A DNA stretch of 64,000 nt. Source: Gammaproteobacteria bacterium (GTDB taxonomy: Bacteria; Pseudomonadota; Gammaproteobacteria; UBA12402). The notes below the pieces were generated by a model. The model was not told the origin of the DNA. It saw only the letters and a list, made by a program, of their open reading frames with translations, and made no database searches. The DNA is taken from the NCBI GenBank assembly GCA_050123375.1, contig JASFHF010000001.1, positions 34,475-98,474 on the forward strand. Reading direction: 5' to 3'. Positions 43,510 through 44,700 of the stretch are shown one piece after another (position 1 is the stretch's first letter; every line of letters starts with the position of its first letter). Made by a program: the position numbers and the translations under genes.

Positions 43510-44700
43510 TTATTCAATAATATCTATAACCACACCTGCGCCAACGGTGCGGCCGCCTTCTCTGATAGCAAAGCGTAAACCTTTCTCCATCGCTATCGGC
43601 GCCACCAACGTCACTTCCATCTTCACGTTATCTCCCGGCATTACCATCTCTACTCCTTCCGGCAATACCACTTCTCCCGTAACGTCTGTCGTCCTAAAGT
43701 AAAACTGCGGCCTGTAGCCTTTGAAAAATGGCGTGTGTCTTCCTCCTTCTTCCTTGGTTAGTACGTATACTTCCGCACTAAACTTCGTATGTGGCGTGAT
43801 GCTTCCTGGCTTCGCTAATACTTGACCTCTCTCTACGTCTTCTCGCTTCGTACCTCTTAACAATACTCCTACGTTATCTCCCGCTCGCCCTTCGTCCAGA
43901 AGTTTTCTAAACATCTCCACTCCTGTACACGTCGTCTTCTGCGTATCTCTTATCCCTACTATCTCGATCTCTTCTCCTACTTTTATAATTCCTCTTTCGA
44001 TCCTTCCCGTTACTACCGTTCCTCGACCTGAGATAGAAAATACATCTTCTATCGGCATCAAAAATGGTTGATCCACTGGTCGATCCGGTACCGGAATATA
44101 TTCATCCATCGTCTCTACTAATTTCTCGATCGATTGACTTCCTTGCTCGCTCGTATCTCCTTCTAGCGCTTTCAACGCTGAACCAATAATAATCGGTGTA
44201 TCGTCTCCTGGAAATTCATAGCTATTCAATAAATCTCGCACTTCCATCTCTACCAATTCCAGAAGCTCTTTATCGTCTACCATGTCCGCTTTGTTCAAAT
44301 ACACCACTATATACGGCACTCCTACCTGACGGGCTAACAAAATATGTTCTCTCGTCTGCGGCATCGGACCATCTGCTGCGCTCACCACCAAGATCGCTCC
44401 GTCCATCTGTGCCGCTCCCGTTATCATGTTCTTCACATAGTCTGCGTGTCCCGGACAATCAACATGTGCGTAGTGGCGTTTGTCTGATTCATATTCAACG
44501 TGTGCCGTCGCTATCGTTATTCCTCTTGCCTTCTCTTCCGGCGCATTGTCAATCTGATCAAACGCCTTTACTTCTCCTCCGTGCTTCGACGACATCACCT
44601 TCGTCAACGCCGCTGTCAACGTCGTCTTCCCATGGTCTACGTGCCCTATCGTTCCTACATTTACATGCGGCTTCGTACGCTCAAATTTCTCTTTGCTCAT
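43510..44700 (-). CDS. tuf: elongation factor Tu, with anomalous purine-ending codon usage over ~95% of its length
   Basis: The protein is a canonical EF-Tu starting '[27 protein letters not shown]'. The coding DNA is GC-richer than its neighbours and dominated by NNA/NNG codons: ATA for Ile, AGA/CGA for Arg, ACG for Thr, GGA for Gly. Confidence 0.95.

Follow-up and report, generated by a model that had tools for sequence, protein, structure and literature searches.

The gene tuf, which encodes EF-Tu, is the textbook gene written in the 'best' codons and is routinely placed in the reference sets of the codon-adaptation index. That tuf, like other highly expressed genes, shows a selected codon bias is a classical finding (Sharp and Li; Sharp et al. 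2005). As well, purine loading of mRNA-synonymous strands is known as Szybalski's rule and was treated by Bell, Lao and Forsdyke, while the concerted evolution of tufA and tufB through gene conversion goes back to Abdulkarim and Hughes (1996). Selective charging of isoacceptors during starvation was reportedly treated by Elf et al. in 2003. According to more recent articles, experiments in Salmonella have measured the selected codon bias of tuf (Brandis and Hughes 2016, PMC4786093), tufA and tufB undergo gene conversion (Paulsson et al. 2017, PMC5485169), and ACG-rich transcripts in hypoxic mycobacteria are subject to codon-biased translation via changes in tRNA pool or modification (Chionh et al. 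2016, PMC5114619).

In the 64,000-nucleotide stretch of DNA analysed here (the window), tuf is a tufB-type copy in the order tRNA-Tyr, tRNA-Gly, tRNA-Thr, tuf, tRNA-Trp, secE, nusG, and the identical gene order is recorded for the source contig. Its reading frame is 396 aa, the 410-aa ORF reaching 44742 being over-extended upstream. Six tRNA genes are present in the window, and the features considered below are as follows.

45278..45306, minus strand: candidate promoter TTGACA-17-CAGAAT, a consensus match, upstream of tRNA-Tyr
45148..45231, minus strand: tRNA-Tyr(GTA), first gene of the tRNA-tuf unit
45065..45138, minus strand: tRNA-Gly(TCC), whose cognate codon GGA is the commonest Gly codon in tuf
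44850..44922, minus strand: tRNA-Thr(GGT), adjoining tuf upstream (about 150 nt), reading ACC/ACT
44738..44816, strandless: palindromic element in the spacer between tRNA-Thr and tuf, a 79-nt hairpin (fold -54.5 kcal/mol, z = -9.1)
43510..44700, minus strand: tuf (EF-Tu), 396 codons plus stop, from its translation and the Pfam domains of its matches
43582..44700, minus strand: tuf body, codons 1-373, with 170 purine-ending codons among 200 choice codons
43513..43581, minus strand: tuf tail, codons 374-396, with 4 purine-ending and 14 pyrimidine-ending choice codons
43392..43478, strandless: palindromic element in the spacer between tuf and tRNA-Trp, an 87-nt compound hairpin (fold -56.9 kcal/mol, z = -6.7)
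43302..43374, minus strand: tRNA-Trp(CCA), between tuf and secE
8581..8677, strandless: third copy of the tuf-flanking palindromic element family, far from tuf (35 kb)
44196..44702, plus strand: mechanical antisense ORF of 168 aa, from the ORF list
44500..44733, plus strand: mechanical antisense ORF of 77 aa, from the ORF list

Among the four-fold codons of tuf, 84% end in a purine (R4, the purine fraction at four-fold sites, is 0.844), while the 39 other genes of the window have a mean R4 of 0.466 (sd 0.055, range 0.33-0.59). A sequence-only reading of the window had called tuf a codon-usage outlier, with a z-score above 2 as the test, and the z-scores found are 6.9 for R4 (6.3 when compared with the 25 window genes on the same strand) and 3.7 for GC3. 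T3 of tuf is 0.18 versus 0.39-0.42 in window genes (z = -3.4 to -4.8), and its R3 is 0.70. The gene is also GC-richer than its surroundings, as had been stated (0.47 versus 0.37 in the window), and its sense-strand purine content is 0.64, versus 0.54-0.57 in the neighbours. Our recount matches the codon preferences given by the same reading, namely ATA for Ile (11/27), AGA, AGG and CGA for Arg (9 + 3 + 5, or 17 of 22), ACG for Thr (23/29, with ACC/ACT at 2/29), GGA for Gly (24/39), GCG and GCA for Ala (15 and 8 of 25) and CCG for Pro (14/20); in addition, Val is encoded by GTA in 23 and by GTG in 15 of 43 cases. Its description of the neighbours as written in T/A-ending codons likewise agrees with the data, as rplKAJL, rpoBC, nusG and secE favour ACT (0.46-0.50), GGT (0.55-0.59) and CGT (0.52-0.58).

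Similar to classical codon bias, the bias of tuf here is strong at the level of the gene and is kept through turnover, and tuf shares the preference of nearly all bacteria for NAC over NAT. Unlike classical bias, the four-fold, Ile, Lys and Arg choices run opposite to those of rplL, fusA, ribosomal-protein genes and rpoBC, and tuf prefers ATA, AGA, CGA and ACG, which highly expressed genes normally avoid. In a series ordered by expected expression and pooled over the clade genomes (non-translation genes, rpoBC, fusA, rplL and tuf), NAC/(NAC+NAT) was 0.09, 0.21, 0.23, 0.37 and 0.48, respectively, while R4 in the same order was 0.50, 0.44, 0.42 and 0.38, and then 0.79 in tuf. In the same pool ATA reached 0.44 in tuf versus 0.07-0.17 in the other genes, and AAG reached 0.52 versus 0.13-0.25. 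Since R4 drops along the series and jumps only in tuf, the pattern is not simply an effect of highest expression, and tuf is not the end point of the normal codon-selection gradient. The idea that only tuf is expressed strongly enough was rejected as well, because rplL has nearly as strong an NAC preference together with the opposite four-fold preference. Other highly expressed genes with the same codons, as in classical codon adaptation, were not seen in the series up to rplL.

The purine-ending tuf regime was present in every relative fetched (at least 15), in those with 90-99% EF-Tu amino-acid identity as well as in Aquicella siphonis and the Coxiellaceae MAG CP058706. R4 of tuf was 0.84 in L001 (secE 0.36), 0.77 in L082/L083 (fusA 0.48), 0.76 in L085 (neighbours 0.42-0.59), 0.73 in L086 (neighbours 0.38-0.49), 0.83 in L089, 0.76 in L090, 0.84 in the MAGs carrying the tuf protein P0024, 0.66-0.81 in three further contigs found by DNA pattern (fusA 0.41-0.49) and 0.72 in Aquicella siphonis (fusA 0.38). 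The nearest EF-Tu proteins were those of the clade relatives, followed by Aquicella/Coxiellaceae at 88%, and the organism of the window is an uncultured Coxiellaceae-like bacterium; no exact match to the 396-aa product or to P0003 turned up in protein look-ups. The tRNA-Thr(GGT) gene is conserved in all relatives for which the upstream part of a tufB-type context was recovered, and the stretch around the candidate promoter (45278-45306) is identical in L089 and L090. A protein scan of genome contigs with EF-Tu, whose listed matches formed a near-random species set, served as a background sample. A milder tuf-only purine excess was also found in unrelated lineages (a Pseudomonadales lineage, Steroidobacteraceae, a betaproteobacterium and Gemmatimonadaceae), and no description of a purine-ending tuf codon regime was found in the literature searched.

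Compared with L085, the window shows a four-fold divergence of 0.44 in tuf versus 0.39-0.60 in seven neighbours, and compared with L089 one of 0.26 versus 0.13-0.27. In the latter comparison 22 of the 46 four-fold changes of tuf are purine-pyrimidine flips. As the four-fold sites turn over at about the rate of the neighbours while the bias is kept, the bias is maintained and is not a relic. Purine-ending usage is thus, with high confidence, a vertically inherited, gene-specific synonymous regime of tuf, which extends over the clade including Aquicella siphonis and further genomes of Coxiellaceae type, applies to both gene copies and has been kept through synonymous turnover.

The regime ends before the gene does. 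The body has 170 purine-ending and 30 pyrimidine-ending choice codons, while the tail has 4 and 14 (Fisher p = 5e-8), and the tail is written in GGY, CGY, ACC and GTT, like canonical tuf genes. Pooled over seven clade genes, the four-fold composition of the body is A 0.46, C 0.06, G 0.36 and T 0.12, and the pooled clade composition of the tail is A 0.28, C 0.27, G 0.10 and T 0.34. The purine fraction is lower in the tail than in the body in 13 of 13 purine-biased tuf genes tested (12 at p < 0.05; L086 at p = 0.05), which include Aquicella, the complete Coxiellaceae MAG and three unrelated lineages. The abrupt end of the bias near the stop had been noticed from the sequence, and it holds for the last 23 codons; the chimeric gene or recombination junction near 43575 that was proposed with it does not, since the same switch is found in all 13 genes, unrelated ones too.

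Several causes of the tail were considered. Richness in Gly and Arg fits outside the clade but not inside it, where GGR makes up 28/34 in the body versus 0/5 in the tail. A possible internal promoter (TTGGCG-16-TATTAT at 43544-43517) spans only about 10 codons and does not require the C-ending codons there. RNAalifold of 29 diverse and 12 clade sequences gave essentially no covariation term for a conserved RNA structure in the tail. A candidate tail hairpin, GATAGCGA / TTTGCTATC with GCGCC / GGCGC, is 85% paired, mostly because codon positions 1 and 2 are fixed by conserved amino acids; changes on both sides were counted 12 times versus 5.7 +/- 2.1 in shuffles (6 of 500 reach 12).

As for the force behind the regime, we tentatively propose a tuf-specific selection for codons read by U34 and C34 tRNAs, which we regard as possible. 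In families with a choice, tuf would use the Watson-Crick cognates of these tRNAs (ACG, CCG, GCG, GGA, GTA, AGA, CGA, TTG and AAG), its ATA would be read by the lysidine-modified CAU tRNA, and the codons of G34 tRNAs, which the other translation genes favour, would be avoided; this match is predicted from standard bacterial decoding rules. EF-Tu synthesis would then draw on isoacceptors other than those of bulk and ribosomal-protein synthesis, and the pay-off may be that it tolerates poor charging of the heavily used isoacceptors, or that EF-Tu output is tied to the tRNA pool. The proposal resembles codon-biased translation in that tuf would call on isoacceptors unlike those of the bulk proteome and has ACG as its main Thr codon; it differs from the case of hypoxic mycobacteria in that the gene is housekeeping EF-Tu and not a stress regulon. 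Because tRNA-Thr(GGU) lies in the same putative transcription unit, the avoidance of ACY in tuf does not come from a missing G34 tRNA; the codons of tuf make little use of this adjacent tRNA.

The purines of tuf are specific to the codon, with ACG > ACA, GCG > GCA and CCG > CCA, yet GGA >> GGG and CGA >> CGG; Aquicella tuf has CGG:CGA at 0:5, its neighbours at 16:7. These choices recur across lineages whose synonymous sites are saturated, and they look anticodon-specific rather than purine-specific. The log-odds shift is similar across classes (R4 1.8, NAC 1.6-2.4, AAG 1.55). Some observations fit selection on decoding less well. A force at the level of decoding should include the last 23 codons, yet these are exempt, and the proposal gives no reason why rplL and fusA would not gain likewise. 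Moreover, CGA is normally a poor codon that is read via an inosine:A wobble pair, so its preference fits the decoding model only with a UCG tRNA. Load balancing via the least-used isoacceptors was rejected, as the purine-ending codons of Ala and Pro are already the background majority. Taken whole, an inherited tuf regime together with selection on decoding is the best explanation, and we consider it evenly poised between right and wrong.

The strongest competitor is selection at the nucleotide level, acting on the tuf transcript or its transcription and not on decoding, which we consider rather unlikely. It could take the form of purine loading of an abundant mRNA (Szybalski's rule; Forsdyke, avoiding RNA-RNA interactions), or of the removal of pyrimidine-G steps favouring RNA polymerase pausing. 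Similar to purine loading, the sense strand of tuf is enriched in purines through third positions (0.64 versus about 0.55), and the six-fold families follow purine count, with Arg (AGR > CGR > CGY) and Ser (AGY up) shifting in proportion to it. Y-G steps form the RNA polymerase pause consensus, and the shift relative to the neighbours is largest before G in the clade (0.42 to 0.84), L003 and L006, which fits avoidance of such steps; the before-G effect is missing in L081 and L002. Unlike purine loading, the enrichment concerns one gene only, ends 23 codons early and involves particular purines (CGA never CGG, GGA not GGG, ACG not ACA). The bias is missing from the tail and from the T-rich 5' leader, although both are part of this transcript, so purine loading of a whole transcript with lower pairing is not what was found: mean MFE per 150 nt is -31.1 versus -31.3 +/- 1.25 kcal in 40 host-usage recodings and -30.8 +/- 0.97 in synonymous shuffles, no effect, by which avoidance of mRNA structure was rejected too. 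Against selection at this level, shifts also occur inside purine-only (AAG) and pyrimidine-only (NAC) families, and AGR is wholly avoided in L081 tuf. Avoidance of YC dinucleotides (Rho evasion) was tried and rejected, since it would predict purines above all before C, where their use is in fact lowest.

Less probable still is a mutation or repair bias specific to tuf, arising from very high transcription or repeated tufA/tufB gene conversion; the latter would also account for the restriction to the one duplicated gene and for the exemption at the edge of the homology tract. The gene is the sole duplicated one of the set, and its copies are homogenised: CP058706 has tufA and tufB with R4 of 0.81 each and 3 differences in 1191 nt (99.7% identical), and, as in tufA/tufB concerted evolution, both contexts are written in the same style. 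The tail sits at the edge of the shared homology tract, and in the close pair window/L089 tuf has no fewer purine-pyrimidine changes per four-fold site (22/175) than its neighbours (16/246), where pure selection predicts a lower rate. However, gene conversion accounts for the regime shared by the copies, not for its purine-ending direction. GC-biased conversion predicts A and T down and G and C up, while A went from 0.30 to 0.46, T from 0.42 to 0.12 and G from 0.19 to 0.36, with C unchanged or lower in tuf, and this shift is strand-asymmetric. Transcription-linked deamination enriches T on the sense strand, the opposite of the tuf pattern. In addition, the tail and the leader are transcribed equally yet unbiased, the 5' edge of tuf shows no evident exempt zone of this kind, and mutation by itself would hardly produce the codon-specific choices. 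Single-copy lineages such as L086/L090 carry the bias (R4 0.73-0.76).

Xenologous replacement, in which the palindromic elements would mark the ends of an incoming tuf cassette, had been put forward on the sequence and is now very improbable. It would account for the atypical composition and for the repeats on both sides. However, the nearest EF-Tu proteins lie in the clade and then in Aquicella/Coxiellaceae, presence is not patchy, and the trait is shared by all relatives fetched, whether the gene is flanked by other repeats or by none, and extends to the fusA-tuf-rpsJ context. As well, the synonymous divergence of tuf is in step with its flanks, and the relatives fetched include no donor lineage whose tuf DNA is nearly identical. 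The elements themselves are palindromes. Three copies, dispersed and intergenic, occur in the 64 kb (79-97 nt, folds of -50 to -57 kcal/mol, z = -6.7 to -9.1), the third lying well away from tuf. Both elements do bracket the gene as claimed, but the 'same orientation' assigned to them is meaningless, as each is about 77% self-complementary (the two copies align at 77% in opposite and 71% in the same orientation). Tuf is equally recoded whether these palindromes, others or none flank it: in L089, the nearest relative (99% amino-acid identity), another palindrome occupies the two corresponding spacers, neither spacer of L085 contains an inverted repeat of at least 14 nt, L001 has none in the upstream spacer and only an unrelated 18-nt hairpin downstream, and no element was found at the tufA copies between fusA and rpsJ in the contexts fetched. 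The elements are therefore almost certainly unrelated to the recoding.

REP/BIME, MITE-like and Rickettsia/Wolbachia-type repeats are known classes of palindromic repeats, and the flanking elements resemble them as near-perfect dispersed intergenic hairpins. They are REP/MITE-like hairpins that have repeatedly landed in the spacers of the tRNA-tuf operon, with the difference that no transposase accompanies them. The element at 44738-44816 matches Rfam RF02625 WsnRNA46 on both strands (46 bits, E = 6e-8), below the gathering score of 65.3.

A diverged second copy that escaped conversion with a normally coded tufA is equally doubtful. In its favour is P0015, a 94%-identical EF-Tu whose gene lies in a str operon on a different contig from that sample. 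However, P0015 also occurs in the tuf-secE context of L001, where it is purine-biased, and all tufA-context genes fetched are purine-biased. P0024 comes from two separate MAG assemblies, one per tuf context, with DNA 2 nt apart. Together with the two recoded copies of CP058706, these cases among the relatives fetched contradict the conversion-resistant second copy of the sequence-only reading.

An overlapping antisense or alternative-frame gene that constrains third positions can be set aside in spite of the two plus-strand ORFs, because antisense frames of tuf contain 4-20 stops each among clade members and the longest open stretch shifts frame and length between 99%-identical relatives (169 aa in the window, versus 92 aa in that frame and 100 aa in any frame in L089); purine-ending sense codons remove antisense stops automatically, so the long ORFs are by-products, spurious as first thought. 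Deliberate recoding, raised on the sequence, or an assembly chimera has nothing but the oddity of the gene in its favour and deserves practically no credence, as the same locus and style come from independent environmental samples and assemblers (JGI, ENA, NCBI), a complete long chromosome and a cultured species.

Among the translation proteins of a cell, EF-Tu and L7/L12 are the two most abundant, and here they have opposite four-fold preferences; that of EF-Tu is kept over saturating synonymous divergence, with a similar pattern in unrelated lineages. This means either that the synonymous sites of tuf are under a second axis of selection or that what is 'optimal' varies between the mRNAs of one cell, and either outcome bears on how codon bias is read in uncultured bacteria. 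Since the trait is present in the cultured species Aquicella siphonis, it is testable. In these lineages, reference sets that contain tuf give misleading calls of optimal codons, and gene callers will report spurious antisense ORFs in tuf. In its most far-reaching form, which we think unlikely, the tuf mRNA would be decoded by a dedicated U34/C34 subset, including the lysidine Ile tRNA, that is hardly used elsewhere, and such decoding would have arisen repeatedly (here, in the Pseudomonadales lineage, Steroidobacteraceae, the betaproteobacterium and Gemmatimonadaceae). If so, EF-Tu synthesis would not follow, or would follow in a different way, how abundant and how well charged the heavily used isoacceptors are, and these bacteria would possess a built-in, codon-level control of the balance of EF-Tu to tRNA.

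The window has a GC content of 0.37 and comes from a 132-kb contig of a MAG labelled 'Gammaproteobacteria bacterium', whose closest named EF-Tu proteins are those of Aquicella siphonis and a Coxiellaceae MAG (88%). The tuf gene stands in the conserved tRNA-tuf-secE-nusG-rplKAJL-rpoBC arrangement, as follows:

43510-44700, minus strand: tuf, encoding 396 aa
Locus order, minus strand except queA: queA / tRNA-Tyr(GTA), tRNA-Gly(TCC), tRNA-Thr(GGT), tuf, tRNA-Trp, secE, nusG, rplKAJL, rpoBC

The 410-aa ORF reported by gene callers starts at an in-frame ATG upstream of the tuf start. 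Upstream of tRNA-Tyr, a stretch that two relatives share unchanged contains a promoter-like TTGACA-17-CAGAAT, and tuf therefore probably belongs to a tRNA-tufB type transcription unit, as in E. coli. A tandem 14-mer (TTCTGTCCTCTGTC / TTCTGTTTTCTGTC) is present between tRNA-Trp and secE (43264-43291), and queA adjoins a minus-strand, Lys-rich ORF of 2253 aa (46373-53134, GC 0.30, no Pfam match on record), which may be an effector-like protein of an intracellular bacterium. As well, third-position strand asymmetry is strong throughout the window, with G3 (third-position G) of ~0.2 and ACG of 0.17 in minus-strand genes, against ~0.1 and 0.04 in plus-strand genes, where C3 is higher.

The sequence-only reading had described tuf as recoded towards purine-ending codons, and its counts matched ours: ATA makes up 11/27 Ile codons, AGA, AGG and CGA together 17/22 Arg, ACG 23/29 Thr, GGA 24/39 Gly, GCR 23/25 Ala, CCG 14/20 Pro and GTR 38/43 Val. 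At third positions of four-fold boxes, tuf has a purine fraction (R4) of 0.844, far outside the 39 other window genes (0.466 +/- 0.055, maximum 0.59). This places the gene well beyond the z-score of 2 that the sequence-only reading had set as its refuting limit (z = 6.9; 6.3 when the comparison is confined to same-strand genes). Third-position T falls to 0.18 from ~0.4 in the other genes. The neighbours do use the usual T/A-ending codons, as had been claimed: ribosomal-protein genes and rpoBC lean opposite to tuf, with ACT (0.46-0.50), GGT (0.55-0.59) and CGT (0.52-0.58) each commoner than in other same-strand genes. The long antisense ORFs called across tuf were rightly considered spurious by-products of this bias, since the open stretches are not conserved (longest 169 aa in the window, against 92 aa in the same frame and 100 aa in any frame of L089, a 99%-identical relative). 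Every stop codon carries a purine as its second and third base, so purine-ending sense codons clear stops from two antisense frames as a matter of arithmetic; in clade members, the antisense frames of tuf hold 4-20 stops each.

DNA of graded relatives was fetched, and tuf R4 was set against that of neighbouring genes:

L089 (99% aa, same locus): tuf 0.83; secE, nusG, queA 0.39-0.46
L090 (99% aa): tuf 0.76
L082/L083 (95% aa, fusA-tuf-rpsJ): tuf 0.77; fusA 0.48, ribosomal proteins 0.48-0.63
L085 (95% aa, tuf-secE...rpoB): tuf 0.76; neighbours 0.42-0.59
L001 (94% aa): tuf 0.84
L086 (90% aa): tuf 0.73; neighbours 0.38-0.49
MAGs with the EF-Tu protein P0024 (90% aa): tuf 0.84, in both tuf contexts
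Three more contigs (degenerate DNA pattern search): tuf 0.66-0.81; fusA 0.41-0.49
CP058706 (complete Coxiellaceae MAG): tufA and tufB both 0.81; rplL 0.31, rpoB 0.37
Aquicella siphonis (cultured): tuf 0.72, with ATA 0.46 and ACG 0.67; fusA 0.38

The regime is thus inherited, clade-wide and present in both tuf copies, which in CP058706 are 3 nt apart; a Berkiella MAG lacks the trait (tuf R4 0.33). In L086 (9602-11578), L087 and L090 (410-2149), the order tRNA-Tyr-(Gly)-Thr-tuf-rpsJ joins the tufB upstream context to the tufA downstream context, which recombination between two tuf copies would produce. At four-fold sites, the window differs from L085 by 0.44 in tuf (0.39-0.60 in seven neighbours) and from L089 by 0.26 (0.13-0.27 in neighbours), and 22/46 of the tuf changes against L089 are purine-pyrimidine swaps. 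Purines and pyrimidines are thus readily exchanged at single sites, with the fraction over the whole gene holding at ~0.8; the bias is a maintained equilibrium, and a frozen import is rejected.

Purine-ending tuf is also other than ordinary codon adaptation. NAC/(NAC+NAT) is a universal mark of translational selection, for which Sharp et al. 2005 is reportedly the source. Pooled over clade genomes, it climbs with expected expression, from 0.09 in non-translation genes to 0.21 in rpoBC, 0.19 in ribosomal proteins, 0.23 in fusA, 0.37 in rplL and 0.48 in tuf. R4 drops along the same series (0.50, 0.44, 0.47, 0.42 and 0.38, respectively) and then leaps to 0.79 in tuf, where AAG (0.52) and ATA (0.44) also exceed the other gene classes (0.13-0.25 and 0.07-0.17). 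Per gene, EF-Tu and L7/L12 reach similar abundance, yet the four-fold preference of rplL is opposite to that of tuf. Which purine-ending codon is taken differs from codon to codon, with ACG > ACA, GCG > GCA and CCG > CCA, but GGA >> GGG and CGA >> CGG (CGG:CGA is 0:5 in Aquicella tuf versus 16:7 in its neighbours); these choices recur across lineages with saturated synonymous sites, and the log-odds shift is alike in all codon classes (1.55-2.4).

The bias stops at codon 374 (43581), with 170:30 purine- to pyrimidine-ending codons before and 4:14 after (p = 5e-8). The abrupt end had thus been correctly noticed; its reading as a recombination junction fails, as the loss is common to 13/13 purine-biased tuf genes examined, among them those of Aquicella and CP058706 and three from unrelated lineages (L081, L003, L006). 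Four-fold sites pooled across the clade show A 0.46, C 0.06, G 0.36 and T 0.12 over the body (codons 1-373), compared with A 0.28, C 0.27, G 0.10 and T 0.34 over the tail (codons 374-396). Outside the clade, Gly/Arg content accounts for the low purine use of the tail; inside it, this cause was rejected, Gly being GGR in 28/34 body versus 0/5 tail codons. No convincing conserved RNA structure was found in the tail, and even relatives at 99% identity do not share its synonymous sites. At codons 366-388 (43540-43594), a candidate hairpin (arms GCGCC GATAGCGA ... TTTGCTATC ... GGCGC) falls in the codons for three conserved peptide segments, A-P-I-A-M, F-A-I and G-A. In 29 diverse tuf genes, 85% of it is paired, and one third-position pair, Ile369/Ala378, has five pair types; statistically, the case is marginal. 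Codon bias reportedly drops toward the 3' end where another gene follows closely (Eyre-Walker 1996 is said to be the source), and such a drop may contribute to the tail.

The two tuf-flanking elements are compound hairpins of 79-87 nt (-54 to -57 kcal/mol), each ~77% self-complementary, and there is a further copy:

8581-8677: third copy of the tuf-flanking palindromic element

The flanking pair had been read as same-orientation borders of a cassette. Its two copies match equally well or better when one of them is reversed, and recoded tuf occurs in relatives with other palindromes or none: both tuf spacers of L089 hold a different palindrome, L090 has a third kind (another small hairpin) after tuf, L085 spacers and tufA contexts have no palindromic element, and L001 lacks one upstream of tuf and carries just an unrelated hairpin of 18 nt on the downstream side. 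The recoding is independent of these elements and does not travel with them. The palindromes of L089, the closest relative (1475-1550 and 2762-2823; near-perfect, 60-75 nt, GGTGTCAAGTCTAGACTTGAGACTTGA...), occupy exactly the window's two element spacers, and the tRNA-tuf operon spacers look like insertion hot spots. The element upstream of tuf (44720-44837) matches, on either strand, Rfam RF02625 (WsnRNA46, a small RNA of Wolbachia), with 46 bits, under the gathering score of 65.3 (E = 6e-8); this may reflect a palindromic repeat type common to intracellular bacteria. Between tRNA-Gly and tRNA-Thr, a ~118-nt insertion (44927-45044), absent from L089, has perfect 16-nt inverted repeats (TGGCTTACACGAAAAG) at its ends and looks like a second MITE-like family; L001 carries an analogous 18-nt inverted-repeat pair between tRNA-Tyr and tRNA-Gly.

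We are highly confident in the description of the regime as tuf-specific, inherited, in both copies, at equilibrium, codon-specific and exempting the tail. As to its cause, selection might act on decoding of tuf by a tRNA subset made up of U34/C34 tRNAs, a tentative proposal in which we place less than even confidence. By standard decoding rules, the ACG, CCG, GCG, GGA and CGA-type choices are Watson-Crick cognates of C34 or U34 tRNAs, ATA is decoded by a lysidine-CAU tRNA, and the avoided codons are those decoded by G34 tRNAs. Against this model, translation runs through the unbiased tail as well, and CGA ordinarily makes a poor codon. A missing G34 tRNA was rejected as the cause of ACY avoidance (2/29 in tuf), as tRNA-Thr(GGU) lies directly upstream of tuf, here and in all relatives whose tuf was recovered with this upstream context. 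Causes acting on the whole transcript, such as transcription-linked mutation, purine loading or nucleotide supply, are opposed by the unbiased tail and T-rich leader and by unchanged predicted folding. GC-biased gene conversion is contradicted by the rise of A, but not C, in tuf.

Gene-specific selected codon bias is a known kind of system, of which the tuf regime is a variant; literature searches turned up no account of a regime like this in tuf. R4 of tuf minus that of fusA, rps/rpl, rpoBC and nusG was compared among 73 species with usable neighbours, taken arbitrarily from the EF-Tu matches listed. The difference ranged from -0.11 to +0.30 and was at least +0.2 in 11 species, against ~ +0.37 in the window. 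On a complete Pseudomonadales chromosome, tuf has R4 0.70, ATA 0.73-0.80, ACG 0.83, GCG 0.88 and CCG 0.90, versus 0.46, 0.16, 0.20, 0.17 and 0.38 in its neighbours; other high cases include a Steroidobacteraceae MAG, a betaproteobacterial MAG, Thiogranum and a Gemmatimonadaceae MAG. In fast-growing isolates (Pseudomonas, Dechloromonas, Salinicola), tuf R4 is ~0.3, under that of their neighbours. In the unrelated lineages L081 (OY762456.1, Pseudomonadales; 9995-11188), L003, L006, L002 and L072, tuf alone is enriched in ACG, GCG, CCG and TCG when set against fusA, rpoBC and ribosomal-protein genes, and in L081 also in ATA; here too the bias is gone over the same last 23 codons. From the species range, the high cases and the low isolates, the window clade represents an extreme, AT-rich form of a recurring pattern.
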